A stretch of 64,000 nucleotides of DNA from a virus (IMGVR_UViG_3300008267_000092:24022-88021), one strand, 5' to 3'. Positions 1 to 23,888 are shown, counted from the stretch's first letter. Made by a program: numbers and translations. Notes: generated by a model from the letters alone, not told the origin.

Positions 1-4
1 TAAA

Positions 5-3000
5 ATGTTTACAGGAGATGTTGCATTTTATAAGAATATGATTGATTATAAAAAACGTGTACCTGCAACATATACGGATGGATTACAGTTGCGATTGAAA
101 AAAGGTGAAGAACATTTTACAGTAGCTACAATTGATAAGGTAGAAATAGGTTCACCATACCATAAGGAATTAGTTGAAATGTTAGGTGTTGAAGGTGCTA
201 AACCATATAGTGAAGGTAAGATAAATTCTGCGGATGCTCAAGCTTGGATAACACCTAAAAGGTGGAAGTTTTTAGTTGAACGTTTAGGTAAATGGACTTC
301 GGATCACGACTCATTGTACACTAAAATGATGTCTGATGGTGATCAGTCTTATACAGCTAAAGAATTAAAGATTGCAGCGCAACCTTTAAAAGGTGTATAT
401 TTTTATATGAACGGTAAAACACCAACGTATCTTAAATACTCACAAGCTGTATTGACACCTAGTATGTTAAAAAACTCACCTGGTTTACGATCTATTTATA
501 GTCAAATGGATAAACAAGGTGTTGACGAATTAATTACATTAGATGGCTTTAAAACAGGTTCTCCAAGACCTACAAGAGTACATAATGTTGACGGTACAGT
601 AAAATCTGAAATATCATTTAATACTGAACAGTTATCAAACTATGGTTGGAAATTACAACAAGATTTACCTGTTAAAACATTTAAACAAACTGACGTAGGT
701 TCTCAAATTCAAAAAAATATTTTTGCAGGTTTAATTCACAATTTAGAATTAGCAGGATTTAATTTAGATGGTTCTGAAACAAACGGACAAACAATCTCAG
801 ATAATATTGTAAATATTGTTTCAGGTTTAGTAGATAAAGGTATTTTAGACATTAAAGAGGAATTTGATGTATTTAGAAACGGTGAAATTAAAAACATTAA
901 GGGTTTTTATAAAGCACTTGTTCGTGAGTTGGAAAAAAGAGGTGGTTCTAAGAATGTTATAGACGCTTTAAATAAACAAACTGCATTATATGGTATGCCA
1001 CAATCAATGGATAAGATTGTTAGTGTATTTTCATCTATAATGAATGATCGTTTAATTAAAATTAAAACAAACGGTGGTGCATTTATACAAATGTCTAACT
1101 TTGGTATATCTAAAGAAGAAGGTGATAGTAAAGGTATTTTATGGAACCCTGATATTGAAAATGGTAGTACAACTTATGAACCACGTATTTATACTAAAGA
1201 AAATGGTCGTAAAAGTATAAAACCTGCAGGTATATTAATTTCAGGTTCATTTATTGCAAAATATATTCCTGATTATAAAAAATATAGTGCTGAAGAACTT
1301 TTTAAAGGTAAAGATGGTAATCCACCTATTATTGATAAAAAAATATTAGAAAATTTAGTTGGTTATAGAATTCCTAATCAAGGACTGTCATCAAATGATG
1401 CTTTAGAAATTATAGGTATTTTACCTGAAGAAAACGGTGATACTATTGTAGCATATACAGGTATTACAACTAAGACAGGGTCGGATTTTGATATTGATAA
1501 GATGTACTTAATGATGCCTAATTATTCTTTAGAGGATGATAGATTGGTATATACTACATACGATTCAACGTTATCAAATAAAAAACAATCTAAAGAAGCA
1601 TTACAAAATAGGTTAATTGAACTATATAAATCAGTTTTAACACATCCAAAAGTTATTAAAGATGTAATGACACCTTTAGATAATGATGTCTTAAAAGACG
1701 ATATCGTAGACTTAATACCTTCAGAGTCTTCAGGAACAATGTTTCATTTTGACGCATTTAATGATATTAAATTACGATATGAGTTTATTAATGGTAAAGC
1801 AGGTGTTGGTCAAGAAGCTAATGCTGTAGTTGATGTTAATAGACCTGGTAATTTAAGTATTAATAAATATAATATTGGATGGGGTCATGTTAATGAAAAA
1901 GGTGATACTAAATTAGATAACGAGTATTCTGAAGCATTATCTGAACAAGATTTAAATTATTATAAAGATGCACTTGTTGATATAAAAATAAAAGAGCTTG
2001 AAAAGAAACAGATGCATGTTAATAACGATGTTAGAGAAAAGATAAAAAAAGAGGTTTCTAACTATGTTAATAACGCAGTTAAAAAAATAAAAGTTGGTGA
2101 TTCATTAACTGCGATTCTTAATGCATTTGTGGATATTGCAAAAGATCCTTATATTACAAGAGGTAACTGGACAACATCTACTACAAATACAGGTAACTTA
2201 CTTATACGTGCAGGTGTTCACCCTTTATATGTTACGTCATTTATGGCACAACCTATAATTAAAGAATATATTGAGTATCAAGCAAGTAAAGAATCTATTA
2301 TTACAAAGAATACAGGTGATATTAAAAATAAATTTAAGAAGAATTTAGCAGTAAAGAATCTTGAAAAATTAAACGATAAACATCCTGAGTTATTGAAACC
2401 TTTAGAATTGATTTATCAAAAATTTGCTAAGTCTAATGGTGCTATAAATCCTTTTACAGCATCAAACGCGGCAGAAAGACTTCAAAAAATGTTAGGTAAA
2501 AAAAATACACTATCTGGTGAAGAATTAGAAAATGTATTGATAACATTAAAACGTGAACATGATAGAGTATTTAATGCTGAAAAATTAAATATTACAGATA
2601 GAAAAACTTATAATTTACAACATTATCGTGAACAAATAAAGAATGAGGCTTCTGCAGATTTTCAAATTGCGATATTAGATAAGTTTTACGAATTACAGAC
2701 CGTTAGTAAAGTAGTTAAAGAAAATGTAGATATTTCTAAATTAGATACTAATGGTATGGGTAAAAATGTTAATTCATTATTTAGCACCTTTAATTTAATT
2801 AAACACGTTTTAGATAAGGAGAAAACAGATAGAGTTGGTGTACTTAACGGTTTGGAATCTAAATTTGAAAATACAACTTTAGCTGTATATCATAAAGGAT
2901 TAAAAGAAATTTTAAGAATTGTTCAAGCAAATCCTTTATTATTTCCTCAAGCGGATAATAAAGTTCAAACAATGTTTAATGAGATATCTAATGACCTATA

Positions 3001-6000
3001 TGACACACCTGCAATTGATAAAGATTTAGTAAATGATTTAGAAAAAGAATATTATACTTATGTAATGTCTAATTTTACACCATTTAATTTAAGTTCTGTT
3101 GAAATAAGAAACTTATTAAGTGAATTACCTGTTGAATTTGAAAATTTTAAAAAGGCAAATAAAGGTAAATATGTGGTTATAGATGAGCTTCTAAATAAAT
3201 TTGATAAAAATTTTAAGTTAATAACTTTAAATAACAGAAAAAAATCAAGTTCTTTTGAAGAAAAGTTTACAGATTCTTGGAGAGATTTAATTACAGATCA
3301 TCCTGAATTTGCAGAAAATTTAATTAAATATTCATTTTTAACTTCAGGTTTTCAAATGAATACTAATCAGTTTTTTACATATATTCCCCATGAGTATTTA
3401 TTACAAAATAACATAAATCAATTTATTGTTAATTTTTCTAGACAGGATCAATTCGATTTCCTTGATAAATTTTACTTAAATAACACTGATAATTATAAAT
3501 ATGTACCTAAAGTATTTGATTCTGAAATTCAATCTGAAGATTTAACATCAGGTTTCACTTTAAAACAATCTGATAAAAGTGAAACAGGTAAAGCTCGTTA
3601 TTACGTATCGAGAGATGCTGGTGGAGGTATTTATAAACTAGAAGGGTATGATTCATTTAATAGAGCAATTTATACAAGAATTAAAGCATTAGGTCAAAAA
3701 CGTAAAGGTAGTACAATTGTTGAATATGGTGATCAATTTACAAAATCAAATCTTGAAACTAGTCCTGAATATATCACAAGATTAAAAAATTCAGTAGTTA
3801 CTGAACGTGATAAATATAATCCTAATTTTACTTTAGATAAAATTGCAGATAGAGAAGAAGATGATTCAACTAACGGATTAACTATAGAAGAACCTACTCA
3901 ACCATCTACTAGTATTTCTGAGTTTGATATAGCTGATAAATTATCACCTATAGAACAAAACTTTAAAGATGGTACAGGTGGTAGAAAAATGCAACCACAG
4001 TTTAAAGGTAAATCTACTATGGATCTTATTATATCAGGAGATAGAACTAGAACTACTAGAGCTAAAACTGATATACAAAGAATGACTAAAGATTATGGTT
4101 TATCTAAAATATCAGATCTTGTTGGTAAAGTTATAAGAATGACTGATAATACAGGAAGACAAGTATATACTATGATTACTAATGTAGTTCCATTTACACA
4201 AGAATATCAAGATGCTACGTGGCAAAATGAAGGTTGGGAAAAGTCTGTAACAGATAAACATGTAAATGATTATCCTTATGCAATTGAATTTAAAGTTGTA
4301 GATAAACCTACTCAACCATCTACTACTCAGGTAGAATCAGTTACGACTGAATTAACTCCAGGACAATATGTTAAATATAATGGTGAAACATACATTATTG
4401 TAAAACAGAATGCAAATGGAACATTTCAGATTTTAAATCCTACTTTAGAAGGTCCTTTATCTAAAATATCAGTTTCAAAAGAAAAACTTCAAGCAATCGG
4501 TAAAGAGGCAAAATTGGTTACCTATAAAGGTGTAGAATATTTAGTTACACCTAATAATACAATTATATCTACAGTTACCAATAAGGCGATGAATTGGACT
4601 GAAAATGATGGTAATAGACGTGCTATTTTAGAATTAGCTAATAACAATATCAAATCGTCCGATAAAATTGAAATTCCAACTGTTGAAAAAACTGTAGTTA
4701 GTAAACTTCAAGAAGTTACGATTTTTAAACCTGCAAATAAAGAGCAAGAGGTTGCAATTGAAGCTATTAAGGATTTTATTGAAAATGGTAATCCTAAAGA
4801 GATATTTACTTTAGAAGGTAAAGCTGGTACTGGTAAAACAACGTTAGTTCAAGAGGCATTAGCAGATTCTGTAGAAAAAGGTAAAAATATTCACATTGCG
4901 GCATTGTCACATAAAGCAAAATTAGTTTTAGCTCAAAAATTAGAACAAAGATTTCCTAAAAAAATAAGTAGTAGTAGTATTGCTGGTTTATTAGGAATGA
5001 AAATGAATGAGGAAACTGGTGAGTTTGAAACAGGATTTAGTGAGTTTGAAAGACCTGTAGAATCTGCAGATATTATTGTTATCGATGAAGCATCAATGGT
5101 AAATGAAGAAGCATTATCTTTAATTATGAGTGAAAAAAGATATGGTACTAAAGTTATATTTCTAGGTGATAGAGGTCAATTACCTCCTATTAGAAAATTA
5201 TCGAGTGATGAAATAAGTACAGTATTTGAATCTTCAAACAAAGCAAGTTTAGTTGAACGTGTAAGACAAGGTGAAGAATCTCCAATATTACCATTTGCTG
5301 ATTATTTTTGGGATAATTCAGAATCTGATAAACCTAAAGCGAATCCTATTCCTGAAGGTCAAATAAAAGATTCTTTAACAAGTAAAGGTAATTTAGTATT
5401 TGTAAATAATTTATTTGATGTGTTTGAGGATGTTGTAAGTAGTTTTAAACAGGGTATAGATTCTGGAAACTTCAACATAATTAAAATTGTAACATATAAA
5501 AATGCTACTAGGCAAAATTATAATAAGCAAATTAGAAAATCAATATTTGGAGAAGATGTACCTCAATTTGTGGTAAAAGATCAAATTATGTTTCAAAATA
5601 ATTACATGTCACAAGGTGTTGAATTTTCTAACAGTGATGAATTTTCAATTGAAGCCGTAATAACTTCTGAAAAAAATGGATATAAGGTATTCGATATAGG
5701 TGTTAAAGTAGATCCTACTAAAGATATAATTACTTATTTTTCAGTATTAGCTGAAGAAGATAAGTCTAAATTTAACGAAGAAGTGGCTAGATTATTTGAA
5801 GTGGCTAAAAAAATGGCACCTGGACAACTTAGGAAAATGGCATATAAAAGTGCATGGGCACTTAAAGCTACATTTGCGGAAATAGATTACTCTTATGCAA
5901 TAACATCACATAAATCACAAGGTTCAACATACGATAATGTTATTGTTGATTTAAAAGATATTTATTCTGTAGGTGCAACCACAAACGCATCTAAATCTCG

Positions 6001-6175
6001 TAGTGCTTATACAGGTTTAACAAGAGCTAAAAATACAGCAATTATTATAACAAGTAAGGCTGAAACTAATAGTGACAATGTTAAAAAAGCTTTAAACACA
6101 ATACCTCAAACAACTTTAACTAAAGAAGAGCAGACAAAGGCTGAAGAATTAAAAAAATATTGTAACCCAAGTTAA
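5..6175 (+). CDS. giant multidomain protein (5' partial, >=2056 aa): N-terminal/central region with RNAP-like DxDxD loop, C-terminal RecD/Pif1-like SF1 helicase domain
   Basis: uninterrupted ORF starting at window edge; SDFDIDKM (nt ~1480-1503) resembles the NADFDGDQM catalytic loop of two-barrel RNAPs; C-terminal GKAGTGKTT (Walker A, nt ~4820-4846), IVIDEASMV (Walker B), GDRGQLPPI, SHKSQGSTYDNVIV (SF1 motif VI-like, nt ~5905-5945). Confidence 0.6.
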   Translation: MFTGDVAFYKNMIDYKKRVPATYTDGLQLRLKKGEEHFTVATIDKVEIGSPYHKELVEMLGVEGAKPYSEGKINSADAQAWITPKRWKFLVERLGKWTSDHDSLYTKMMSDGDQSYTAKELKIAAQPLKGVYFYMNGKTPTYLKYSQAVLTPSMLKNSPGLRSIYSQMDKQGVDELITLDGFKTGSPRPTRVHNVDGTVKSEISFNTEQLSNYGWKLQQDLPVKTFKQTDVGSQIQKNIFAGLIHNLELAGFNLDGSETNGQTISDNIVNIVSGLVDKGILDIKEEFDVFRNGEIKNIKGFYKALVRELEKRGGSKNVIDALNKQTALYGMPQSMDKIVSVFSSIMNDRLIKIKTNGGAFIQMSNFGISKEEGDSKGILWNPDIENGSTTYEPRIYTKENGRKSIKPAGILISGSFIAKYIPDYKKYSAEELFKGKDGNPPIIDKKILENLVGYRIPNQGLSSNDALEIIGILPEENGDTIVAYTGITTKTGSDFDIDKMYLMMPNYSLEDDRLVYTTYDSTLSNKKQSKEALQNRLIELYKSVLTHPKVIKDVMTPLDNDVLKDDIVDLIPSESSGTMFHFDAFNDIKLRYEFINGKAGVGQEANAVVDVNRPGNLSINKYNIGWGHVNEKGDTKLDNEYSEALSEQDLNYYKDALVDIKIKELEKKQMHVNNDVREKIKKEVSNYVNNAVKKIKVGDSLTAILNAFVDIAKDPYITRGNWTTSTTNTGNLLIRAGVHPLYVTSFMAQPIIKEYIEYQASKESIITKNTGDIKNKFKKNLAVKNLEKLNDKHPELLKPLELIYQKFAKSNGAINPFTASNAAERLQKMLGKKNTLSGEELENVLITLKREHDRVFNAEKLNITDRKTYNLQHYREQIKNEASADFQIAILDKFYELQTVSKVVKENVDISKLDTNGMGKNVNSLFSTFNLIKHVLDKEKTDRVGVLNGLESKFENTTLAVYHKGLKEILRIVQANPLLFPQADNKVQTMFNEISNDLYDTPAIDKDLVNDLEKEYYTYVMSNFTPFNLSSVEIRNLLSELPVEFENFKKANKGKYVVIDELLNKFDKNFKLITLNNRKKSSSFEEKFTDSWRDLITDHPEFAENLIKYSFLTSGFQMNTNQFFTYIPHEYLLQNNINQFIVNFSRQDQFDFLDKFYLNNTDNYKYVPKVFDSEIQSEDLTSGFTLKQSDKSETGKARYYVSRDAGGGIYKLEGYDSFNRAIYTRIKALGQKRKGSTIVEYGDQFTKSNLETSPEYITRLKNSVVTERDKYNPNFTLDKIADREEDDSTNGLTIEEPTQPSTSISEFDIADKLSPIEQNFKDGTGGRKMQPQFKGKSTMDLIISGDRTRTTRAKTDIQRMTKDYGLSKISDLVGKVIRMTDNTGRQVYTMITNVVPFTQEYQDATWQNEGWEKSVTDKHVNDYPYAIEFKVVDKPTQPSTTQVESVTTELTPGQYVKYNGETYIIVKQNANGTFQILNPTLEGPLSKISVSKEKLQAIGKEAKLVTYKGVEYLVTPNNTIISTVTNKAMNWTENDGNRRAILELANNNIKSSDKIEIPTVEKTVVSKLQEVTIFKPANKEQEVAIEAIKDFIENGNPKEIFTLEGKAGTGKTTLVQEALADSVEKGKNIHIAALSHKAKLVLAQKLEQRFPKKISSSSIAGLLGMKMNEETGEFETGFSEFERPVESADIIVIDEASMVNEEALSLIMSEKRYGTKVIFLGDRGQLPPIRKLSSDEISTVFESSNKASLVERVRQGEESPILPFADYFWDNSESDKPKANPIPEGQIKDSLTSKGNLVFVNNLFDVFEDVVSSFKQGIDSGNFNIIKIVTYKNATRQNYNKQIRKSIFGEDVPQFVVKDQIMFQNNYMSQGVEFSNSDEFSIEAVITSEKNGYKVFDIGVKVDPTKDIITYFSVLAEEDKSKFNEEVARLFEVAKKMAPGQLRKMAYKSAWALKATFAEIDYSYAITSHKSQGSTYDNVIVDLKDIYSVGATTNASKSRSAYTGLTRAKNTAIIITSKAETNSDNVKKALNTIPQTTLTKEEQTKAEELKKYCNPS

Positions 6176-6177
6176 TT

Positions 6178-6681
6178 ATGGAAAATAATAAGAAAAAATT
6201 ATTAAACGATAAAGTTATTAAAACTTTAAATTACAGAATACAACAAGAAGAATATTCTTCAAGAATTTACGAACAATTATCATTATGGTTAAACAATAAA
6301 GGATATTTAAATTTTGCAGAGTTGTTTAAGAAATATTCAGAAGAAGAATTAGTACATGCTAAATTTTCTAAAGATTTTCTATTAGATTATGGTATTACAC
6401 CTTGTCTTGAAGCGTTACCTTCTCCTGAAATGGAAATAGAGTCATTATTAGACGTTTTAGAAGCAGCTTATGAACATGAGCTATTAGTTACTCAACAATG
6501 TGAAGAACTTGCCTCTATGGCTTTAAAAGAAGGTAATCACGTGTTATATCAATTAGCATTAAAGTACTGTGCTGAACAACAAGAAGAGATTGGTAAAGTT
6601 ATTACAAATTTAGATATTTATAAACTAAGTACTGACATGTTGGTTATTGACCATTATGTAGGTGAAAAACTGTTAGGATAA
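6178..6681 (+). CDS. ftn: ferritin (FtnA-like non-heme ferritin, ferroxidase-centre residues conserved)
   Basis: 167 aa; collinear similarity to E. coli FtnA from memory (LNYRIQQEEYSS / SEEELVHAKF / YEHELLVTQQCEELA / AEQQEE), with the ferroxidase-centre positions (E, ExxH, E, QxxE) occupied. Confidence 0.8.
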   Translation: MENNKKKLLNDKVIKTLNYRIQQEEYSSRIYEQLSLWLNNKGYLNFAELFKKYSEEELVHAKFSKDFLLDYGITPCLEALPSPEMEIESLLDVLEAAYEHELLVTQQCEELASMALKEGNHVLYQLALKYCAEQQEEIGKVITNLDIYKLSTDMLVIDHYVGEKLLG

Positions 6682-6682
6682 T

Positions 6683-9600
6683 ATGGTGTGTCCAAATAAA
6701 AGATTAAAGGCTTGGAAAGATTTAGTTAAAGTTGTAGGGGAAGATAAAGCTTATCTTTTATGGGATACCCATGAAGGAAATGTCCCACAACAATATTACA
6801 ATGAACAAAGTATTAATGAATCTGCTACTTTGGTAGCAGGTTCTAATATTTCTGAAGAAAATTTATTTCAATCTACTGTAGATTTTAATGATTTAATTGG
6901 AAATACCAACGAATCTATTTTTACAGATGGTTTTGAAAATAAATCAATTGATTCTGATTTAGGTAAAATAACTGATATTTTATTTAATGGTAATGTTGGT
7001 AATTTAAGAGTTGAACATATTTTAAATAATATTATAGAAAATGTACCTGATATTACAGAACATACTGCTGAAATTATTAACAGGTCTAAAAAACTTTTAA
7101 CTCGTGCAAATGTTAAAGTTGAATTAGTTAAAGATTCAGAAATGGTGTCTAATAATACTGTAATGCAGTATGAAGCTAATACAAATACTATTCAAATATC
7201 TTTAGATAGAATAAACCAATTTGATTCTAAAACTGTAGTTGTTGGATTTTTACACGAAATTGTACATAGTTTAACGGTACAGGCATTAGCTAAAGATCCA
7301 TCTAAAAGAACATTTTCAGAACAAGAATTAGTTGATGTTGTTGAAAACTTTTTAAAAAAATATAAAGACAGTAAATTAACTGAAGAATACGGTTTTAAAG
7401 ATAGGTTTGAATTTGTTGCAGAATTTTACGCAAATCCTGAATTTAGAGATGCTGTTAAAGCTGAATCAGATATTTGGTGGAAAAAAATAGTTGATGCTAT
7501 TAGGAGATTATTTGATGTTGCTAAAAATCCTGAATACACTAAATTATTTGACACTATTATTAAATATGTAGAAAATGATAATGTTGATTTAGAACATATT
7601 GAAAATTTAGATATAATATTTAGAAAAGAAGCAGAATATAAAAAACCTGAATTTGTTACATTTCAAGATAAATTAGATCGATTAAGTGGTAAAGCTATTG
7701 ATAATATTGCACAAGCTAGAGCTCGTACAGCAGCTTCTAAGAAAGCTAAATCTAAGAAGGATCAAAAGACTCATCTAAAGAATATTGATGACTTAATTGA
7801 GGAAATGGATAAGCTTAGTGAGATTAATAAATTACAAGTAATTGCTCAATATACAAATACATTAGCTAAAACGATTTATCAAATAGATAATGGTATGAAA
7901 CGTCTTTATACTAAAACTAAAGATTTTAGAAAAGAGGATTTACTTCCATTATTACAGAGTTATGAAGAGTACTTATTAGCTTACGATTTAACGAATGAAA
8001 TTAATGAACTTCTTGCTGCTTCTCGTAGAGAACTTAAAGTATTATCTGAAGAAGATCAAAAGTCATTAGATGAGATACGTAAAACACTTTCTTATGCTAT
8101 AAGTAGACGTGATGAGCTTGTTAAAGAATTTGTTGATTTAAAAAGAGAACAAGCGGTTAAGGTTTTTGCTAAACCTGAATATAATACCCAAGTTGAAACT
8201 GATTTTAGAAATAGATTATACAAGGAATATGCACAATTAAATATTCAAGGTGAATCGCGTGATCAGTATGTATCACGAATGTTAGCTACAAGAGATAAAG
8301 ATGAATATGAAAAAGCATTAGTTGCTTCTGCTGAAAAAATGATTAACAATCCTTCTTTAGATATAAGTTCTTTTAAAGCAAAATTTTCGGATCATTTAAA
8401 TATTAGTAGTAAACTTATTCAAATTATAACCAATATTACAAGTGCAGTAAGAGAAAAAATTACATCACAGTATAAGGATTATGATTTAATGTTAAATGAC
8501 CTGTTTAAAGATTTGGTAAAAGAAAAAGGTAATAAAAAACCTTCTGAGGCATTTAAGAATATATATGAGCAAGATAAAGACGGTAATTATTTCTTTAAAG
8601 GTGTGTATAGCATTAAATTTAGAGATATTTATTTAGAAGAATACATTCCATTAAAACAAGCGTTATCTGAAATTACTGAAAAATTAAAATTGCAGGGATT
8701 AACTAAAAAAGAATATCTTACAAATGATGAATATAAACAAGCTGATGCAAATGCAAAAGCTTGGATGAAAAAACATACACTTAAAGATCACAATGACCCT
8801 ACAGGTAAAGCTTGGTATCCTAGACCTATTTATAAGAATGCTGAGGTTACAGGTATGGATAAACAAGTTTTAAAAGAAGCAATCGCTTTAGCTAAACTCG
8901 GACATAAAGAATTTAAAGGTAAAAGGTCGTTAATTAGAAAAACAGGTAATGTCCAATTTTATAAGTTTCCAGCTATTACAAAATCTAATTTTGAAAGAGC
9001 TGTTGAAATGGATGCAAAAGGTATTGTTAAAGATATAAAAGCTGATTTAACTGAAATTAGACCTGATGATATAGGATATGGTGAACCTGTATCTAAAACA
9101 GGTGAATCTTTAAAAAGTATTAAAGTGCATTTTAGAGGTGAATTGAGTCCAGACCAACAATCTTTAGATGTTCTTTCAATACTTCGTAAAGAATATTTAA
9201 ATGTTATTAGTTATAAAGAAAAGTCAAAAGAAGAGGCTTCTATCTTATTAGTTGCTGATATTTCTAAAAATAAAGAATATCTACAAATATCTAAAAAAAC
9301 AGGATTACCATTATTAAATGCTTTTAATAAAAATGAACCTATTGAAACAATGTCAGGTGAATTTACAAATGAGTATTTGAAAATTAAAGGTATTATTGAA
9401 AGAACGGTATATGATACATTTCACGAACATGGTGGTAATTTTAGTGGTGTAGATATAAATAAAATTACAAGTTATGTCAATGGTATGACAGCTACAATCG
9501 CGATGTCTTTTGATATCGCATCAGGTACAGCAAACGTACTTAATGGTTTTACACAATTATTTATTGAATCCGTAGGTGGTGATGTATTTAGTACAAAATC

Positions 9601-10804
9601 ATTACTAAAAGCAGAGGCTAAATATACTTCAGATATGCCTAATATTTTACGTGATTTAAGTAGCCCTGTAAAAACTTCATTTACAAATCAATTATTAGAA
9701 ATGTATGATGTTTTTGGTGGGTTTGACCCTGCAACTCAAGAGTTTATTAGAAATAGTGTTGCTAAAAAATTAGCATCTAGACAAACATTAAATGGTTTGA
9801 ATGAGATGGGTGAACATGCTATGAACTCTGTAGTAACAATGAGTGTATTAGATGGTCTTAAAGTAATGAATGCTGAACATAAATATATTGACAAAGATGG
9901 TAAAATTGTAGATTCTGAAAATGAAGCAGCATCGTTACTTGATATGCTTATATTTAATGACAAAGGTAAGTTGGTAATGAGTGATAGTGTTAAATTTACT
10001 AAACAAAATTTAACTGTCGATTATCATAAGGGTGGTAAAGTTCACGTTAACTTATTAATCAAAAATAAAATATTTGATGTATTTGGTGTATATGATAACA
10101 ACTTTAAAAATGAATTTTCAAAAACTGTATTAGGTAAACTTACGATGATGTTTAAAAACTTTTTCCTAAGTGCTGCACAATATAGATTTACAGGTATTCA
10201 AACATCTTTAAAAAGTAAAGAAGATTTAACTGATGATGATTTAAATTATAACACAGCTAAAAAAGAATATACTGAAGGTACTTATGTCACGTTAATTCGA
10301 TATTTTAAAGAAGCTGTCATACCTGCGTTAAAAAATCTTGAATTAATGTATGTTAAAGAGGTATATAGTGGACTATCTGATCATGAAAAAGCAAACCTTA
10401 AAAAAGTAACGGTTGAAATAATGTTAACGTCTATTATTATACCTGCAATAGGTGCATTGATTGCATCGGCTGCAGGACCAGATGATGATGAAACATGGTT
10501 TATGGTTTATCAATTACGAAGACTTGAATCAGAATTATCTCAATTTAGAAACCCAATTGAGGCAGGTAAGATTATTACAAATCCTATTGCTGCAGTAAGA
10601 TTACTTCAACATGGTTTAAGTTTTGCGTATGAAGTTGCAACACCTTTGGATTTTGCACCAGATAAAGGTGATCATTTCTTTTCATATTTAAATGAAGATT
10701 CTAAACATCAAAACATTTTACTTAAAAAAGGTAAAAAAATAGTTCCAATTTGGTCAAAAATGGATCGTGATTATAAACAACTTTATTCACTTATTAATAA
10801 GTAA
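6683..10804 (+). CDS. giant protein (1373 aa) with HExxH zincin-like metallopeptidase motif and C-terminal hydrophobic segment; probable virion/ejection protein
   Basis: long ORF; VVGFLHEIVHSLT (HEIVH) at nt ~7250-7270; predicted TM helix IMLTSIIIPAIGALIASAAG near C-terminus; coiled-coil-rich central part. Confidence 0.5.
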   Translation: MVCPNKRLKAWKDLVKVVGEDKAYLLWDTHEGNVPQQYYNEQSINESATLVAGSNISEENLFQSTVDFNDLIGNTNESIFTDGFENKSIDSDLGKITDILFNGNVGNLRVEHILNNIIENVPDITEHTAEIINRSKKLLTRANVKVELVKDSEMVSNNTVMQYEANTNTIQISLDRINQFDSKTVVVGFLHEIVHSLTVQALAKDPSKRTFSEQELVDVVENFLKKYKDSKLTEEYGFKDRFEFVAEFYANPEFRDAVKAESDIWWKKIVDAIRRLFDVAKNPEYTKLFDTIIKYVENDNVDLEHIENLDIIFRKEAEYKKPEFVTFQDKLDRLSGKAIDNIAQARARTAASKKAKSKKDQKTHLKNIDDLIEEMDKLSEINKLQVIAQYTNTLAKTIYQIDNGMKRLYTKTKDFRKEDLLPLLQSYEEYLLAYDLTNEINELLAASRRELKVLSEEDQKSLDEIRKTLSYAISRRDELVKEFVDLKREQAVKVFAKPEYNTQVETDFRNRLYKEYAQLNIQGESRDQYVSRMLATRDKDEYEKALVASAEKMINNPSLDISSFKAKFSDHLNISSKLIQIITNITSAVREKITSQYKDYDLMLNDLFKDLVKEKGNKKPSEAFKNIYEQDKDGNYFFKGVYSIKFRDIYLEEYIPLKQALSEITEKLKLQGLTKKEYLTNDEYKQADANAKAWMKKHTLKDHNDPTGKAWYPRPIYKNAEVTGMDKQVLKEAIALAKLGHKEFKGKRSLIRKTGNVQFYKFPAITKSNFERAVEMDAKGIVKDIKADLTEIRPDDIGYGEPVSKTGESLKSIKVHFRGELSPDQQSLDVLSILRKEYLNVISYKEKSKEEASILLVADISKNKEYLQISKKTGLPLLNAFNKNEPIETMSGEFTNEYLKIKGIIERTVYDTFHEHGGNFSGVDINKITSYVNGMTATIAMSFDIASGTANVLNGFTQLFIESVGGDVFSTKSLLKAEAKYTSDMPNILRDLSSPVKTSFTNQLLEMYDVFGGFDPATQEFIRNSVAKKLASRQTLNGLNEMGEHAMNSVVTMSVLDGLKVMNAEHKYIDKDGKIVDSENEAASLLDMLIFNDKGKLVMSDSVKFTKQNLTVDYHKGGKVHVNLLIKNKIFDVFGVYDNNFKNEFSKTVLGKLTMMFKNFFLSAAQYRFTGIQTSLKSKEDLTDDDLNYNTAKKEYTEGTYVTLIRYFKEAVIPALKNLELMYVKEVYSGLSDHEKANLKKVTVEIMLTSIIIPAIGALIASAAGPDDDETWFMVYQLRRLESELSQFRNPIEAGKIITNPIAAVRLLQHGLSFAYEVATPLDFAPDKGDHFFSYLNEDSKHQNILLKKGKKIVPIWSKMDRDYKQLYSLINK

Positions 10805-10810
10805 AAGTCA

Positions 10811-10855
10811 AAAAAAAAGGGGTAGTCTACTTAATTGTAGCTACCCCTTTTTTCA
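10811..10855. terminator. bidirectional rho-independent terminator at the convergent junction of + and - blocks
   Basis: aaaaaaaaGGGGTAGtCTACttaattGTAGCTACCCCtttttt: GC stem flanked by A-run and T-run. Confidence 0.65.
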
Positions 10856-10857
10856 TT

Positions 10858-11028
10858 TTATTTAATTTGTATCTTTAATTCGTCAACAATCATCCATTGA
10901 CAATCATTAGAATTAAGATTTACTTCTTCAGATTCTATAAAATCTTCACCATTTTCCCATATATTAATATCATAATCATAAACAAATACATCAGATGTTC
11001 TAAAATCTAAAATTATAATTTTTTTCAT
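10858..11028 (-). CDS. small hypothetical protein (56 aa), start overlaps thyX stop (ATGA)
   Basis: unlisted ORF read from reverse complement; translational-coupling geometry. Confidence 0.3.
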   Translation of the reverse strand: MKKIIILDFRTSDVFVYDYDINIWENGEDFIESEEVNLNSNDCQWMIVDELKIQIK

Positions 11029-11678
11029 AGTTTAAATGCGTTAATAGTGTGTTTAAATGGATTACCTTCTATATTCTTAACAAGTTCTAACATTTCTGTT
11101 ACTATATCCCTAGTTTCTTTTTGTGTGTCTTCTTTTAAACGAAGATTACACATGTGAAAAAATGCCAATAAACTACCAGTCCATATAAACTCAGTTTCTA
11201 AAGATAAAGGTAACACAGAACGAGCTTGTTCTTTTGATATACCTAAATCAAGCAAGTCTATGTACGCTTTTTTACACCACTCTATAACTTTAGATTGTAT
11301 TTGCTTAGCGTGTTCATTATCAGCACCGTTTAAATTTTCTCCTGAACCTTGCTTACTACTTTTTGACTGTAATCTAAATTGTTCAATCTTATAGTAACTA
11401 TCTGAGAAATCCACATAACGACCTGATATACTATTTACAGAAATACCTACTTGATGTTTATGCAATTGTCTTTCTACATATATAGGACATTTAATCCTAA
11501 ATTGTAGTTGGGGATGTCTAAATGGACTTGTGTGTTTGTGATTTACTAAATAGTTAATTAATTTAGCATTTTGTTCTTCTTCATAGTTAGAAGACTCTTT
11601 TCCGTAGCTAACACGAGCTACATTTGAAACCATTTCATCACTTCCATAATGTGATAACAGTTCTACTGTATTATTCAT
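11025..11678 (-). CDS. thyX: flavin-dependent thymidylate synthase ThyX
   Basis: ARVSYGK N-terminal motif, RHPQ...S, SVNSISGRYVDF (ThyX S-x-R-Y signature). Confidence 0.8.
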   Translation of the reverse strand: MNNTVELLSHYGSDEMVSNVARVSYGKESSNYEEEQNAKLINYLVNHKHTSPFRHPQLQFRIKCPIYVERQLHKHQVGISVNSISGRYVDFSDSYYKIEQFRLQSKSSKQGSGENLNGADNEHAKQIQSKVIEWCKKAYIDLLDLGISKEQARSVLPLSLETEFIWTGSLLAFFHMCNLRLKEDTQKETRDIVTEMLELVKNIEGNPFKHTINAFKL

Positions 11679-11937
11679 TTAAATATTTTTTAGTTAATAA
11701 CCAGTCTATCTCTTCAATATTCCAAATTTTACATTCAGTATCAATACTTGTAACATATCTTAAAGTACACAATAATTGACCAAATCGCATATCTGGATAT
11801 TTTAACCATTCTTCTTTTACATGCTTGTAGTGTTTTAAAAATTTACGATATAACACTTCATCATCTGTAAATTCTAAAAATATAGATTTCCGTCTAAATA
11901 ATATTAGACATTTTGGTATTCTTTCAATATCTCTCAT
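11671..11937 (-). CDS. hypothetical protein
   Basis: ORF in operon context. Confidence 0.4.
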   Translation of the reverse strand: MRDIERIPKCLILFRRKSIFLEFTDDEVLYRKFLKHYKHVKEEWLKYPDMRFGQLLCTLRYVTSIDTECKIWNIEEIDWLLTKKYLNE

Positions 11938-12278
11938 TAAAAAGGTAGTTTTTGATTTTCAATCTTATCTATTATAGATGCTTTCTCTAAAATTAAATAG
12001 TTAATTGCGTCACCATATTTTTCATTAAGTAAATCTATAGAAGGTAATTTACCATTCTTAACATCATTTCTAATATCTTGTATTGAAATAATATGTTTTA
12101 AAGCCATACCGTAGATTATTTCTTCTCTACTTGATACATTATTAGACATTGCAACCCCTACATCAAAATTATGTAAAGGGTTGTTATTTCTACGATATTC
12201 TTTAGCTTTAATACTTAACACTTCTTTAATACTATCACAAATATTATCTACTTCGTGGTCAAATCTTTTTTCTGTCAT
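11937..12278 (-). CDS. hypothetical protein
   Basis: ORF in operon context, overlapping start/stop with neighbours. Confidence 0.4.
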   Translation of the reverse strand: MTEKRFDHEVDNICDSIKEVLSIKAKEYRRNNNPLHNFDVGVAMSNNVSSREEIIYGMALKHIISIQDIRNDVKNGKLPSIDLLNEKYGDAINYLILEKASIIDKIENQKLPF

Positions 12279-12469
12279 TTATTTAAATTATTTTTATTAT
12301 TATGTACTTCTTTTTCCATAATTTTATAAAAGGCTTCAATTTTGTCAATTTCATTTTGACAATTATCACAATATAATTTATCTACTTTTTTACCAGTAGC
12401 TATAATTGTACGACATCTGTTACAAATTGTAGCTCCATTACCATTGTTAAATTTATATATTGGTGTCAT
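12275..12469 (-). CDS. small zinc-ribbon protein
   Basis: CNRCRT...CDNCQ (two CxxC pairs). Confidence 0.4.
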   Translation of the reverse strand: MTPIYKFNNGNGATICNRCRTIIATGKKVDKLYCDNCQNEIDKIEAFYKIMEKEVHNNKNNLNK

Positions 12470-13143
12470 ATTTCTAATATATTACCGTTACTTGTTAATT
12501 TTCCAAATTTACCATCAGTAACTACACTACCATTACTAAAAATAGTTGGATAATTTGATAATTTTAACGTACCTGCATTTATAATATCTTCAGTATTATG
12601 AATATGACCAAAGCATACTAATTTAGGTTTAATTCTACCCAATATGTGCGTTTTAAGTGCATTACAACCACAATATTCTAAAACACCTTCTCTACTATAG
12701 GATAAATCTAATATTCCTTTAGGAGGTCCGTGAACGACAAATATGTCAACATCATCGTCCACTTTCTCCCAAACTTTATTAATCTTACTACGGTCTTTCA
12801 TGAAAGCCCAGTTACCAAATTGTGGTGTATGTGGTGAACCAAATATTTTAATCCCCTCAATAGTCACATAATCATTTTCTAAATAAATAATATTGTAAGC
12901 TTCAAAATCTTTTTTAGTTATTAAACCTTTTTCAATACTGGTATCATGATTACCTGCAACATATATTTTATGTTTAATTGGTAATGATTTAAACCAGTGA
13001 ATAAAATCTCTTACTTCAGGTTCATTAGTGTAGGGATCTCGTGGATTACTACAATCACCAGAGTGTATAATAACATCACAGGATTCGTCTATTTTTATTA
13101 ATGTGTGATAAGAGTGTGTATCACTGATGTGATGTATTTTCAT
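12466..13143 (-). CDS. calcineurin-like metallophosphoesterase
   Basis: HISDTH, GDCSNPRD, GNHD, GHIH motifs in canonical order. Confidence 0.7.
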   Translation of the reverse strand: MKIHHISDTHSYHTLIKIDESCDVIIHSGDCSNPRDPYTNEPEVRDFIHWFKSLPIKHKIYVAGNHDTSIEKGLITKKDFEAYNIIYLENDYVTIEGIKIFGSPHTPQFGNWAFMKDRSKINKVWEKVDDDVDIFVVHGPPKGILDLSYSREGVLEYCGCNALKTHILGRIKPKLVCFGHIHNTEDIINAGTLKLSNYPTIFSNGSVVTDGKFGKLTSNGNILEI

Positions 13144-13296
13144 TTTTAACTTTTTTATAAATTAATATTATTATTAAAATTAAAACAATTCCTGACAGAA
13201 TTCTATTTTCTATCGGGAGAGCTTCAACACATGATGGGTGATTAGGACGGGTTGTACACCAACATTCTGTTTTTGGAAGACAAGGAGGTTTCATAA
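13144..13296 (-). CDS. small Cys-rich membrane protein (~50 aa), unlisted
   Basis: MKPPCLPKTECWCTTRPNHPSCVEA + hydrophobic helix ILSGIVLILIIILIY; read from reverse complement. Confidence 0.3.
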
Positions 13297-14016
13297 TTAC
13301 ATTAAGTTTAATTTATTAACATATTCATCTATTCCAAAATTATGAATTTGACTAGAAGTTTTTATATTTAATTCATCATAATTAATTTTATGAAATTCAA
13401 CTTTATTAAGATTGTTGTAAAATCTTAAAATTGGAGATTTCATAAAATTATCATCATCAATAAAACACTTATGTTTTTTAATCATATTCACCACATCTTC
13501 ATCATTGACTGATTCATTATCAACATTGAAAAAGCATCTAATAATCAATGTGTAAACACTAATTAGTGCTGTAGTTTTATTCCAATATGCAGGAACTTTA
13601 AAAATTAACACATCTTCATCTACTGTAATTAATGTTTTGTTTTTTAAATTTAACACGTCTTCAATTTTATTTATAAATAATTGTAAATTGACATAATTAC
13701 TTATTAAAATTTCAGAAGCTTTACTTTTAGGTGTCCAGTTAGTATCACTTTTAAAATTTAAAGTATTTACTCCTAAATAAAAGTATTGTTTACGATTAAA
13801 ACAATTTAAAAGTTTATGATTATAACCATAAACACTACCTATTTCTTTTTTAGTATGTTCAACATAACTAAAATCATTTAAATAATCTCTACATGCTGTA
13901 AAAGGTAAATATGTTTCGTAGTTAGATTTAATTTTATTTAAAATTGTAAAACCTATACCAAAACTTCTACCTTCATTTAATTTACTCCTTTTTTGTAATT
14001 CTTTAATTTTTTTCAT
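13297..14016 (-). CDS. hypothetical protein
   Basis: 239 aa ORF overlapping helicase gene start. Confidence 0.45.
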   Translation of the reverse strand: MKKIKELQKRSKLNEGRSFGIGFTILNKIKSNYETYLPFTACRDYLNDFSYVEHTKKEIGSVYGYNHKLLNCFNRKQYFYLGVNTLNFKSDTNWTPKSKASEILISNYVNLQLFINKIEDVLNLKNKTLITVDEDVLIFKVPAYWNKTTALISVYTLIIRCFFNVDNESVNDEDVVNMIKKHKCFIDDDNFMKSPILRFYNNLNKVEFHKINYDELNIKTSSQIHNFGIDEYVNKLNLM

Positions 14017-20528: not shown

Positions 20529-21998
20529 TTATATAAAAGGGTTAGATAAATAATCCGAAATGAGATCTTCTACACTTGTTGTAGTTGAAATTTCAGATAT
20601 TTTACTATACCAGTCAAAATAACTATGATTACCATAGTCTTCCTCATCAAATAATACACCTTTTAATTTTGAAAAATGGCAAGTATTCTCTTGTCTAGTT
20701 AAAATATAGTTGACCAGTCTATCATATATTGAGTATCTGTAAGATATATTATTTCTATTACAGTAATCTTTAATAATATACATTAAGCGATTTTGATTCT
20801 CACTACAATTTAATGCATTACCTTCTAGAATATTTTTAGTGTTTATTTTAGCATAATCTACAAGTATTGTACTTAATAATAAAAACATTGAAATTTTAGA
20901 CATATCATATGTTGGAGTATGAATTCTAAATTCAATTGTAGTTTTATTACCAAAAATTAAAGGTATTAAATTATGTATGAAATAACGATGTTTTATATTC
21001 CACTTTTGATTACCACTTGGATCATTTGGGTGATGAGTAACATTATTTAAATCGTTATTAAAATCATAAAATGAAACACCTCCTGACAAATAACTAAATA
21101 AAACATTAAAGTTATAATCAATATTTTTAGAAGTTATTACAGGATCCATTTTTGAAATTAAAGAATATGTAGGATAAGGTTTACTATAATTCTTATTTTT
21201 AATATTAAAATTATATTTTTTATATAACGGAAATAATTCAAAAATGTCGTCTTGTATAAAAGTTGTTAATTTAAAAAATGCTAAAATAAATTCTTTTGTT
21301 CTAGGTACATTTCCAATATGCATATGAAGAGCACAGCTATTATCAAATTCAGTTCTTTCTTTTAGAGCTTTTGTTGTATCAAATAGTGTCTGCACCCCTT
21401 TTACACCTTGTAATGGAATTGTTACATATTCAATACCTGAAATACTACCGTCACGTAAAGGAATTAATCCTAATTTATCTGTAATTCTTTGAGGTATGTA
21501 ACCTTTAATTGTTTCAAATTCAAGTCCAAAAGTGTAATCTTTTAAAGCTTTTCCAACCTCATTAGAGCCATGTAATACTTCAAATTCATATTTTGAGTTA
21601 TATCTCTGAATGTGTGAAATGTGAAAATAAAGACCCGATGATAATTCTTCACGATATTTTTTATTTTGAATTAAAATGTTTTCATTCATCGCAGGTATCA
21701 CGATTCCGTGTTTATTTTCAAAATACATAACGTGATTTGATCTCTGGAACCAACCTATTTTGTCATTTTCAATTAAACCTGAGAGTAAATTTGCATTTTT
21801 AAGAGTGTATTTCTTAAATGTATTACAATATACAATATTACCTTTTTCAACACGGTAATACTTATCATTAATTTTATAACAATCCCCTGAATTTTCAATT
21901 TCAGGATCTCCGATTTTATAATATTTACCTTCAAAAATTCTTGTTTTAGAAATAGGTAGAGACTCACCACTTACAGTTGTTACTATTTTTTCAATCAT
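20529..21998 (-). CDS. GCS2-like carboxylate-amine (COOH-NH2) ligase / amidoligase paralog with ~145 aa N-terminal extension
   Basis: FGLEFET (GvEeEf-like N motif) and ALHMHIGN (GxHxH motif), same motif pair as 23889-24686. Confidence 0.45.
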   Translation of the reverse strand: MIEKIVTTVSGESLPISKTRIFEGKYYKIGDPEIENSGDCYKINDKYYRVEKGNIVYCNTFKKYTLKNANLLSGLIENDKIGWFQRSNHVMYFENKHGIVIPAMNENILIQNKKYREELSSGLYFHISHIQRYNSKYEFEVLHGSNEVGKALKDYTFGLEFETIKGYIPQRITDKLGLIPLRDGSISGIEYVTIPLQGVKGVQTLFDTTKALKERTEFDNSCALHMHIGNVPRTKEFILAFFKLTTFIQDDIFELFPLYKKYNFNIKNKNYSKPYPTYSLISKMDPVITSKNIDYNFNVLFSYLSGGVSFYDFNNDLNNVTHHPNDPSGNQKWNIKHRYFIHNLIPLIFGNKTTIEFRIHTPTYDMSKISMFLLLSTILVDYAKINTKNILEGNALNCSENQNRLMYIIKDYCNRNNISYRYSIYDRLVNYILTRQENTCHFSKLKGVLFDEEDYGNHSYFDWYSKISEISTTTSVEDLISDYLSNPFI

Positions 21999-22005
21999 TG
22001 TTTAA

Positions 22006-23877
22006 TTATATTTTTAAAAAGTTATTCATTTGGTGTAAAGAATCATCAAGAAAATCAATTATATGTCCTGCTACATAATTATCTTTATATTTTTCTAATT
22101 TACTTTTAAGTTTTTGAAAATCTGAAAAACTTTCAGCTAAGTCTTCATCTGCAAGATTTAAAACTAATTCAGAAATTGATTCTTCTTCATCAATTAAAGT
22201 ATTTAATATGTCTTCATCAGAATCAGGTTCTACTACAACTTTCATAAATGAAGGATTATCCCAAGCATCTAATTTTGCTAATTCAGCATCTATAACTTTA
22301 TCAATTTCAGAAACTTCTTCAACAGGAAGTTCTTTTGAAAGATATGTATTTACAGAAGAACTTACAAGATTACCTAAACTTATAACATATTTCTTTTCGG
22401 AACCTAATGGACAAATTTGACCACTAAAAGGTTTTCCATTAAATAATATATTTTGATGTTTCACATCACAAACATCTTTATCTAAATCAATTACAGGGTG
22501 TGTTGATAAGCTTGATAAAGTGTGAAAATCTAAATACTTTCTATTTTTACCTAAATATCTAGTATATGCAATATTATAATCAATCGAAGTTCTTAAATTA
22601 ACACCTTCTACAAAATAAAATAAACTTGGATTTAGGCAGTTTTCACTTTTAAATGGTATAAATTGATTTTTAAGATTTGGATTAACTGCTTCAAACGCAC
22701 CATTAATAAATACTTTATCAATATGAAAATAAAAACGTTCCGTTGCCTCTTTAATATTAGATTCTAAATAATGAAAACCATAACCAGGTATCCATGTATA
22801 AATACCTGTAATAGGTAAACCTTTTTTTAAATATCTTAATTTATTAAAATATACCTTGTTATCATAACTACCAAGTGATTGTAAAGTGGTTTCGTTATAA
22901 ATATTAGAAGTTACAACCTTACTTTCAATAACAGAGTTAGAAGGACTTATAGTTTTTGTAGATTCATTACTTTTGTAACCATAATCGTAGTCCCAATCTT
23001 CATATCCATAATTATGTCCTGAATAGTTTCTTCCTGAATATTGTTTATTATAATTTGTAGAATAATCTTCTTTTTGATACGCTTTTTTACGACTAACTTT
23101 AATTTTTTTAGCGTTTTTAAAATCTCCATCTGTAATAACATATACTGTATTACTGTCTATCGCTTTAATTTTAGTATCATCATCACTAATTGTTTTCAAT
23201 GCTGATTCTAATGAAGACACGTACATACTATTATCATTTTCAAGATATACAAATAATGGACGTTCTTCTACCATTTTTGAATCATTATCTGAAGATAAAC
23301 TTTTTGAAGCACCTTTCCATAAATAACCTACATTGGGTGTATCTGTGTCTGTCCAAAATAAAGCAGCACCTCCAATATATTCACTCAAAACTTTAAAATT
23401 ATTTGAACGATATAATATTTCCAATAATAATTCAGAATCAATTTTAGTTCTAACTGAATCTACAATATTATTTTGATAAGTTGTTAATTTATAATCTGCA
23501 GTTAATTCAACATTGTATTTTTTAGCTAATTCTGTATGATTTGAAAGTGTTCCATTATGACAACCTATAAATTTAAAACCTGAATTAACATTATTTACAT
23601 CAAACCCAAAAGGATGGGCATTATAAGAATTTACCGCACCTACACTTGATTGGCGAGTGTGTCCAATTACAATAGGGTATTCAAAAGGTTTAATATTATT
23701 TTCAACTATAAAATCATAATATAATTTATTTTTATCTAAACCTATATAAATTTCTCCATCATAAGATACACCACAAGAACTTTTACCTCGTTCTACATTA
23801 TATATACCTAATTTGTCAAATTTATCTTTATTAAAATCTTTAGGATCTTTTCCTAAATAACCAAATATTCCACACAT
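22006..23877 (-). CDS. class-II glutamine amidotransferase (Ntn hydrolase) domain protein with Tyr/Asn-rich linker and acidic C-terminal tail
   Basis: N-terminal MCGIFGY (Cys2 nucleophile hallmark of GATase-II/Ntn); no PP-loop SGGxDS so not AsnB/QueC; C-terminal DSDEDILNTLIDEEES. Confidence 0.65.
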   Translation of the reverse strand: MCGIFGYLGKDPKDFNKDKFDKLGIYNVERGKSSCGVSYDGEIYIGLDKNKLYYDFIVENNIKPFEYPIVIGHTRQSSVGAVNSYNAHPFGFDVNNVNSGFKFIGCHNGTLSNHTELAKKYNVELTADYKLTTYQNNIVDSVRTKIDSELLLEILYRSNNFKVLSEYIGGAALFWTDTDTPNVGYLWKGASKSLSSDNDSKMVEERPLFVYLENDNSMYVSSLESALKTISDDDTKIKAIDSNTVYVITDGDFKNAKKIKVSRKKAYQKEDYSTNYNKQYSGRNYSGHNYGYEDWDYDYGYKSNESTKTISPSNSVIESKVVTSNIYNETTLQSLGSYDNKVYFNKLRYLKKGLPITGIYTWIPGYGFHYLESNIKEATERFYFHIDKVFINGAFEAVNPNLKNQFIPFKSENCLNPSLFYFVEGVNLRTSIDYNIAYTRYLGKNRKYLDFHTLSSLSTHPVIDLDKDVCDVKHQNILFNGKPFSGQICPLGSEKKYVISLGNLVSSSVNTYLSKELPVEEVSEIDKVIDAELAKLDAWDNPSFMKVVVEPDSDEDILNTLIDEEESISELVLNLADEDLAESFSDFQKLKSKLEKYKDNYVAGHIIDFLDDSLHQMNNFLKI

Positions 23878-23888
23878 AATTTATTTTT

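Follow-up and report, generated by a model that had tools for sequence, protein, structure and literature searches.

The 64,000-nucleotide (nt) stretch of viral DNA analysed here (IMGVR_UViG_3300008267_000092:24022-88021, in the following 'the window') begins inside a giant open reading frame (ORF) that joins the virion RNA polymerase (vRNAP) of a crAss-like phage to a helicase of the Dda/RecD type. The fusion of polymerase and helicase is real. Judged by homology, the ORF is the 3' two-thirds of the giant vRNAP gene of a crAss-like phage, and its polymerase part is the catalytic vRNAP of a phi14:2-like crAss-like phage, a new and divergent member of a known family. As to function, we see about an even chance that the helicase is injected together with the polymerase and opens duplex DNA for an enzyme that needs a single-stranded template. 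Features of the ORF are given in window coordinates and lie on the plus strand.

Polymerase and helicase in one reading frame

The ORF spans 5..6175 (2056 codons and a stop at 6173-6175). The window begins T AAA ATG, where bases 2-4 (AAA) encode a Lys already in the frame of the ORF; the frame being open at the window start, the C-terminal part of the vRNAP-ASCH-helicase polyprotein is given as 2..6175.

The polymerase core comprises residues 1 to ~1295 (2..3889) and is homologous to residues 877 to ~2180 of gp66, the vRNAP of phage phi14:2. Pfam and PHROGs returned nothing in the first 1500 residues, and gp66 was found only via a sequence search of the PDB. There, phmmer matched 6vr4_A (phi14:2 gp66, 6VR4) with E=8.8e-178 in four collinear stretches covering query 1-1192, the first stretch alone reaching E=1.4e-121. 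With blastp, query 1-766 aligned to gp66 877-1668 and query 857-1230 to 1690-2086, at 35% identity over 849 residues and 26% over 407 residues, the core identity being 25-35% overall.

In the catalytic loop, SDFDIDKM (residues 493-500) aligns residue for residue with GSDFDIDKMY of gp66, TGSDFDIDKMY being identical in both, and DFDID (residues 494-498, nt 1484-1498) falls on the catalytic 1361-DFDID-1365. The DFDxD motif with Ile or Val at its fourth position is therefore present, as DFDID. All three aspartates of this motif are needed for the activity of gp66 (bioRxiv 10.1101/2020.03.07.982082). The loop closes the beta'-like barrel active-site segment, which extends from GYRIPNQGLSSND to the catalytic DFDID (1361..1498) and was delimited by the gp66 alignment and by invariant columns. 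Upstream of the connector, the block AAQPLKGVYF...YLKYSQAVL (374..454), with invariant K, G, F, P, L, K, Y, S and Q columns in 17 vRNAPs, would represent the beta-like double-psi barrel region. Landmarks described for gp66 are the connector (1095-1238), the bridge helix (1529-1559) and the trigger loop (1598-1636) (bioRxiv 10.1101/2020.03.07.982082). The segments aligned to the latter two were placed approximately at 1757..1846 (second HMMER stretch) and 2090..2206 (third HMMER stretch). Altogether the alignment takes in the connector and what lies upstream of it, followed by the DFDID barrel, bridge helix and trigger loop, and the blocks invariant among 17 diverse homologues are PLKGVYF...YLKYSQ, YRIPNQG...S and GSDFDxDK. 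The window protein thus shares with gp66 homology over 877-2086, the catalytic DFDID and the bridge-helix and trigger-loop segments.

A preliminary description, made from the DNA alone, had found the DFDID loop to resemble the Mg-binding loop of double-psi-beta-barrel RNA polymerases, fitting the DxDxD motif of crAss-like phages, and had proposed a comparison with phi14:2 gp66 and a search for a double-psi beta-barrel fold around the loop. The exact alignment on gp66 1361-1365 bears out the first, and the homology to the gp66 crystal structure (E=8.8e-178), with both barrel regions covered, answers the question of the two-barrel fold.

As a separate observation, many homologous genes are broken at this point: some homologues end at query 494 (P0099, P0113, P0114, P0117, P0129) and others start at query 495 (P0104, P0107, P0138), in both cases inside the DFDID motif. 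Judging from the alignment, such gene ends and starts are consistent with an earlier report that crAss polymerase genes are disrupted within the DxDxD motif (PMC7886860).

The N-terminal part of the polymerase is missing from the window. Full-length homologues contain IEYSKMFTGDVAFYK internally, and the K-M-F-T-G-D start of the window fits that consensus; therefore Met1 is internal and the ORF is cut by the window edge, as had been suspected from the first inspection. The same match ruled out the ATG at position 5 as the true start, with the TAA at bases 1-3 as a preceding out-of-frame stop. In a search of 1.84 billion representatives, which gave 1854 vRNAP homologues, the best match was P0043, a full-length protein of 3058 residues with 68% identity. 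Residue 1 of the window protein corresponds to residue 858 of P0043, and P0043 aligns with gp66 from residue 1, both starting with MACK. Some 857 N-terminal residues consequently lie outside the window, and the complete protein should have ~2900 residues. In P0043 the N-terminal ~870 residues include the region of the cleft-blocking domain, the same region being outside the window in our query. When window 1-12000 was compared by megablast with 50,697 phage records, no match was obtained, so that the phage is not a sequenced isolate.

At the other end of the ORF, the Dda/RecD-type helicase of superfamily 1B (SF1B) occupies 4622..6094, with residues 1574-2030 as the intact helicase, as indicated by matches in Pfam, PHROG and PDB sequences, by motifs and by an AlphaFold2 (AF2) model. 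The complete motif set of RecD/Pif1 type that had been noticed initially, in the same frame as the polymerase, is there: Walker A GKAGTGKTT (residues 1605-1613, with Lys1611; 4817-4843), Walker B VIDEASM (residues 1692-1698; 5078-5098), motif III GDRGQLPP (residues 1721-1728; 5165-5188) and motif VI SHKSQGST (residues 1968-1975; 5906-5929). Motifs I, II, III and VI are intact, and the catalytic residues are invariant among the 14 homologues aligned. Pfam gave AAA_30 (3.9e-19), AAA_19 (1e-15), UvrD_C_2 (2.6e-8) and also PIF1, and PHROG 325 'Dda-like helicase' matched residues 1537-2024 (8.5e-77). The motif and family scores of the ORF lie far beyond chance. Among solved structures, the sequences nearest to it are those of Dda-type helicases (9kwf, 8jx6, T4 Dda 3upu), followed by RecD and Pif1.

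The AF2 model of residues 1446-2056 had a predicted local distance difference test score (pLDDT) of 82. Foldseek ranked DSH9 (8jx6, E=2.6e-28) and T4 Dda (3upu, E=4.1e-26) first, with target template modelling (TM) scores of 0.76-0.77, and then RecD2, RecD and Pif1. The domain has all the helicase motifs of these five, its predicted fold being closest to Dda and DSH9, and judging from motifs and model it is presumably a complete and active SF1B enzyme. T4 Dda is a free protein of ~440 residues made after infection. Unlike Dda, the window helicase forms the C-terminal end of a polymerase protein which, by analogy with gp66, would be packaged.

The continuity of the frame was examined; the first description had allowed for a helicase gene of its own, separated by an overlooked frameshift or sequencing error. 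The 6171 nt of the ORF contain no stop and no change of frame. One continuous ORF is kept in L004 and P0043 (63-68% identical to the window), and one frame in L004, P0043 and P0044 (60-76% identical). A look-up of the ferritin-like protein encoded downstream returned three contigs, L014 and L015 among them, and the contigs carrying identical neighbour genes begin inside the polymerase-helicase gene. The independent assembly L015 (NCBI GCA_031546345.1) matches window 4147-11000 with 100% identity. In L014, gene calling gives two overlapping ORFs for the region, which speaks for a separate helicase gene joined by frameshift, sequencing error or chimeric assembly and prompted us to consider a frameshift; the break turned out to be a run of 10 N in the scaffold. 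In view of this gap, of the identity of a different assembly and of the single frame in three relatives, we give such an artefact practically no credence.

The exchangeable segment between polymerase and helicase

In phi14:2, gp66 stops after the core at 2180 residues and gp65 comes directly next, whereas the window protein has ~760 residues more. The preliminary description had the helicase fused to the polymerase; the single frame stands, but the two are not directly adjacent, as an ASCH fold and a beta-rich domain lie between them.

The ASCH-fold (PUA-like) domain, with the motif SGDRTRTTR, was assigned from a structure model to residues ~1310-1435 (3932..4309). A repeat search detected a 27-nt direct repeat at its borders. 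The left copy (3885..3911) codes for the linker EPTQPST and forms the left boundary of the ASCH cassette, and the right copy (4299..4325) codes for KPTQPST. Both copies are 25/27 identical and spaced by 414 nt, or 138 codons, and the (E/K)PTQPST linkers thereby bracket the cassette. For the ASCH and beta-rich segments Pfam returned only noise at E<=10 and no match to the ASCH model; the ASCH assignment rests on the structure model, which has the ASCH beta-barrel fold. At the site of the GxKxxExR signature the module reads G-D-R-T-R-T-T-R, where R58, T59, R60, T61, T62 and R63 are invariant in 27 sequences. We take this to resemble the GxKxxTxR form of YqfB. In comparison with E. coli YqfB and ASCH domains, the window module has Arg for Lys, an N-terminal extension and no Pfam ASCH match.

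The cassette (residues 1298-1445) is 56-86% identical to a segment of 26 other proteins, the polymerase parts of which, where present, are only 23-43% identical to that of the window. The ASCH module would be an exchangeable accessory, probably one that recognises a modified base in nucleic acid or removes it. A further repeat was observed here: TTTATCTAAAATATCAG, a perfect 17-nt direct repeat at window 4099-4115 and 4456-4472 (+), 357 nt or 119 codons apart, codes for LSKIS in both the ASCH module and the beta-rich domain. No tandem repeats were found in window 1-11000.

Following the cassette, residues 1446-1535 (4340..4609) form, according to the AF2 model, a small beta-rich domain, built from two similar repeats of strands only, and a disordered linker; residues 9-77 of the model are all beta. 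The segment gave only a weak CBM_5_12 match (E=0.011). It is common to P0001-P0003, L004, P0043 and P0044 and absent from the standalone helicases P0004-P0009, and was thus seen only in the fused forms of the window's helicase clade. In this the window helicase differs from its standalone relatives.

A case of exchange is L014 (ENA ERZ19571604 scaffold_103), which is 98-99% identical to the window on both flanks. Its positions 1909-3114 (1206 nt) replace window 3915-4345, with the left breakpoint at window 3914/3915, and the replacement is in frame, bringing a SLOG-like module and a further segment instead of ASCH. The match of this module to cpYpsA/SLOG is weak (E 8e-5, below the Pfam cut-off). 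Such a clean in-frame swap between nearly identical flanks suggests a recent cassette exchange. The same SLOG-like module occupies this place in L004 and P0043. In P0001 an AlkB-like domain (PF13532) is annotated, which would sit in the unmatched middle segment of that protein, and P0044 has no module between polymerase and helicase. L004, P0043, P0001 and P0044 all end in the beta-rich domain and the helicase. Compared with L004, the window is 71% identical in the helicase part and 63% in the polymerase core. As the helicase is more conserved than the core and the middle module varies, it is the helicase that is stable and the middle slot that is exchanged. Together with the single ORF kept at 63-68% identity, this conservation speaks for selection on the fusion. 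The exchange probably proceeds via recombination at the linker-coding repeats.

Fused helicases in other crAss-like phages and their possible role

To place the fusion, vRNAPs with and without extra domains can be compared. In the phi14:2-like IMG/VR relatives (contigs of 91-97 kb), the polymerase ORFs have 2456-2622 residues and no helicase; the C-terminus is NADAR and DUF7831 in L005 and DUF7831 in L006. Among the best 150 vRNAP representatives, 55 continue for >120 residues past the gp66-type end. AAA_30 was the most frequent recognisable extra domain in the long-tailed representatives (6/17), followed by DUF7831 (2/17) and by AlkB-like, NADAR and ART-PolyVal (1/17 each).

Polymerase cores were grouped by average-linkage clustering of the identity matrix. 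By this grouping, polymerases with a helicase are scattered over at least five separate positions among those without one, the neighbour-joining and average-linkage trees being rough and without support values. The fused helicases belong to four or more groups distant from one another, with 24-34% identity to that of the window. The matches listed from the IMG/VR helicase scan are likewise a lower bound, standalone copies included. The window's own group is 46-50% identical to standalone helicases of ~485 residues, one of which, P0006, belongs to a replication module and has DnaB close by.

Two Suoliviridae genomes carry the same combination in single coding sequences (CDS): cr50_1 (YP_010110216; 14,325 nt, NC_055868.1 65825-80149) and cr118_1 (YP_010110531; 14,841 nt, NC_055872.1 16381-31221). 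Both hold a DFDxD polymerase region and a C-terminal AAA_30/UvrD_C_2 helicase, which is the only copy in either genome. Like the window protein they unite polymerase and C-terminal helicase, but their helicase, of a different helicase group, shares only 24-25% identity with that of the window, and they come from the gut, not from the phi14:2-like lineage. Their polymerase region also starts ~1780 residues deeper in the protein than that of gp66, a shift close to the size of gp67 (1797 residues), which suggests that a gp67-like N-terminal part is fused as well. In crAssphage, Rudgehvirus jaberico and cr127_1, the homologue of the cr50_1 helicase is standalone, near the genes for uracil-DNA glycosylase (UDG) and DNA polymerase.

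In RefSeq these giant polymerase genes are named 'DNA helicase' (cr50_1) and 'exonuclease V' (cr118_1), names that are misleading and matter for annotation. Other crAss polymerase genes bear the labels 'nuclear pore complex protein-like' or 'DprA-like'.

A different arrangement is seen in L030 (IMGVR_UViG_3300027861_000016), where the polymerase is split over ORFs 51-6407 and 6473-13321. The first holds the N-terminal polymerase half, with ~1000 unmatched N-terminal residues and no Pfam match. In the second, a Dda-like helicase (residues 183-621; 42-43% identical to the window's) precedes the beta'-like half, which has DFDVD. Another C-terminal fusion of polymerase and helicase, a distant one, is L085. 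Aside from these, L021 (IMGVR_UViG_3300001765_000124) contains an ORF of >3630 residues that runs off the locus end, with a related helicase at residues 836-1297; no polymerase similarity was detectable in it, and it perhaps represents a different type of giant phage protein with several domains.

No statement of a vRNAP-helicase fusion was found in the text of the literature searched, which took in the gp66 preprint, Yutin 2021, the Crassvirales review, the crAss001 atlas, the zeta-crAss paper and the paper on polyvalent proteins and where depiction in a figure is possible; the word helicase is absent from the text of the Crassvirales review. The gp66 preprint names only a fusion of three cargo proteins into a polyprotein (bioRxiv 10.1101/2020.03.07.982082). 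Our initial impression that such a fusion was undescribed holds for the literature text searched and fails for the databases, since the Suoliviridae genomes had already been deposited with it, annotated only as helicase or exonuclease V. The fusion is thus known from public records and from several metagenomic lineages. Natural polymerase-helicase fusions, in three arrangements and several lineages including the abundant human-gut Suoliviridae, bear on the question of how a crAss vRNAP starts on incoming double-stranded DNA, gp66, the only member of the family characterised, being inactive on duplex in vitro.

Regarding mechanism, we propose by analogy with gp66 that the vRNAP-helicase protein would be packed into the capsid, ejected partly unfolded ahead of the DNA, and refolded in the cell to transcribe early genes. 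The helicase would then arrive at time zero, tethered to the polymerase. Translocation along the non-template strand, 5'->3', would take it the same way as a polymerase that reads the template 3'->5', and it would thereby open the incoming duplex, clear bound host proteins and feed single-stranded template to the polymerase. For both enzyme types, SF1B helicases and RNA polymerases, the properties behind this polarity argument are established.

Several published observations fit into this proposal. gp66 is carried in the virion, enters the cell together with the DNA and synthesises the early transcripts, packaging and rifampicin-resistant early transcription being known only for phi14:2 (bioRxiv 10.1101/2020.03.07.982082). 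It transcribes single-stranded and denatured DNA, not double-stranded DNA, and its early transcripts have no common upstream motif; QDE-1, a structural relative, needs the QDE-3 helicase and RPA (bioRxiv 10.1101/2020.03.07.982082). The cargo proteins of crAss001 are thought to exit partly unfolded ahead of the DNA and then refold (PMC10172136). As functional analogues, QDE-1/QDE-3/RPA and T7 gp4 couple RNA synthesis requiring single-stranded DNA to a helicase, with no homology implied. QDE-3 is a separate protein, a RecQ-family helicase, and in T7 gp4 a hexameric superfamily 4 (SF4) helicase is joined to a primase rather than a two-barrel RNA polymerase. Two features of the fusions themselves favour coupling to transcription: helicases of different lineages have been joined repeatedly to vRNAP, in three arrangements, and the helicase persists while the neighbouring module is swapped.

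More tentatively, the helicase may be integral to a promoter-independent transcriptase of single-stranded DNA, a self-contained injected 'unwind-and-transcribe' enzyme by which some lineages would have solved the opening of the duplex, with the linker-flanked slot as a cassette site for modification readers or erasers (ASCH, SLOG, AlkB). If true, this would be the first coupling of unwinding and transcription for a DNA-dependent two-barrel RNA polymerase. The fusions in any case offer a directly testable hypothesis and constructs ready to use, with a built-in comparison of closely related polymerases with and without helicase.

Several points weigh against a role of the helicase in transcription. 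Most crAss vRNAPs, that of phi14:2 included, are functional without a helicase, so that it is not a general requirement, and no match to this helicase was found in the phi14:2 genome. SF1B helicases need a 5' single-stranded tail for loading. Cleavage has been suggested for fused crAss polyproteins (bioRxiv 10.1101/2020.03.07.982082), and the window polyprotein may by analogy be cleaved. Finally, the same C-terminal site in relatives holds NADAR, DUF7831, AlkB-like, cpYpsA/SLOG-like, ART-PolyVal and HATPase modules; conflict-type modules at one site fit a mere co-delivery of unrelated effectors.

This last point leads to a rival explanation that we consider possible, if rather doubtful: the vRNAP would serve as an injection vehicle, and ASCH and helicase would be independent early effectors of counter-defence or damage control without any role in transcription, stripping restriction or nucleoid proteins, for instance, or processing modified or damaged nucleic acid. 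It agrees with the swap site after the polymerase core, filled by ASCH in the window, by SLOG-like modules in L014, L004 and P0043, by an AlkB-like one in P0001 and by none in P0044, with NADAR and DUF7831 in L005 and DUF7831 in L006, with ART-PolyVal, HATPase and AlkB after the same ASCH module in other proteins, and with the 27-nt repeats flanking the cassette. Polyvalent proteins, which are delivered from the virion or by conjugation, are likewise multi-domain and often have helicases (PMC5512222). With these (archetype P1 DarB; PMC5512222) the window protein shares the very large size, the multi-domain build, the variable linker-joined enzymatic modules and, as would follow from gp66, the delivery with DNA; in relatives, the same site is occupied by ART-PolyVal and other modules. 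The helicases of polyvalent proteins, however, are of SNF2 or UvrD type, not Dda/RecD (PMC5512222), Pfam detected none of the polyvalent hallmark domains in the window protein, and its scaffold is a two-barrel RNA polymerase with an SF1B helicase instead of an SNF2/methylase dyad or UvrD. Moreover, the window's clade retains the helicase while the middle module varies, and the three arrangements, one of them inside a split polymerase, with helicases of different lineages, suggest more than random cargo. The injected polymerase C-terminus is a modular cargo slot, relevant to counter-defence in early infection.

We think it improbable that the domain is a Dda-like accessory replication helicase, moved to the end of the polymerase gene and thereby pre-made and delivered with the genome, which would initiate replication or recombination (origin opening, fork passage or primosome-like action with RNA synthesis) and not assist early transcription. 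The closest standalone relatives lie in replication modules (P0006 near DnaB), and the crAssphage, Rudgehvirus and cr127_1 homologues of the cr50_1 helicase are near UDG and DNA polymerase genes. cr50_1 and cr118_1 have the fused copy only, and no second copy was found in the 64-kb window, its nucleotide-metabolism/replication side included, the window being part of the genome. Packaging would nevertheless be of little use to a replication helicase, as replication genes are expressed after early transcription, and phi14:2 gave no match to this helicase.

Last, SF1B enzymes are strong directional translocases, and an ATP-driven motor could pull the genome into the cell, like the transcription-driven entry of T7 or N4. 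Arrival among the proteins that leave first, before the DNA (PMC10172136), would suit this role, but SF1B enzymes track single strands, most crAss phages are without the domain and nothing specific speaks for it, which makes it very improbable.

Neighbouring genes

Downstream of the ORF and outside the fusion, a ferritin-like gene (6178..6681, +; Pfam Ferritin 3.3e-20) is followed by a homologue of gp65, the RNA-polymerase-associated virion protein, with a HEIVH zincin-type motif (6683..10804, +). With blastp, the latter is 26% identical to phi14:2 gp65 over 1336 residues (E=5e-100). The gene order is the same as in phi14:2, with the gp65 homologue downstream of the polymerase, except that the ferritin-like gene is inserted ahead of it, within the block of virion cargo genes; in phi14:2, gp65 comes directly after gp66 with no gene between. 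The ferritin-like gene is also present in L004 (8017-8520), L005 (14896-15405) and L006 (14954-15436). It is 95% identical between window and L004, where the flanking polymerase is 63% identical, and 39-43% in L005 and L006. The protein keeps the ExxH pattern and conserved Glu residues. In L007 and L009 no ORF >=150 residues was found at this position.

The remaining gene layout is crAss-like. From 11 kb on, the minus strand carries Thy1, a metallophosphatase, an SNF2-type helicase, ribonucleotide reductase and an amidoligase/amidotransferase cluster; from 49 kb on, the plus strand carries PhoH, GroEL, TerL, portal and major capsid protein. The PhoH-like ATPase gene is at 48926-49639 (+), and the GroEL-like chaperonin gene (51431-52897, +; PHROG 5725, 1.5e-122) lies immediately upstream of TerL. 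The cluster of amidoligase, glutamine-amidotransferase-like and COOH-NH2 ligase genes (20529-24686, -; PHROGs 2443, 4736 and 3815) may represent a pathway of small-molecule or nucleic-acid modification. A transfer-messenger RNA (tmRNA) gene was detected at 41763-42131 (-) by Rfam RF00023 over the full-length model (55.3 bits, gathering score 47), and the tag peptide predicted by ARAGORN is GKNQAKANMAKVFSLINSSKEEVLMAA.

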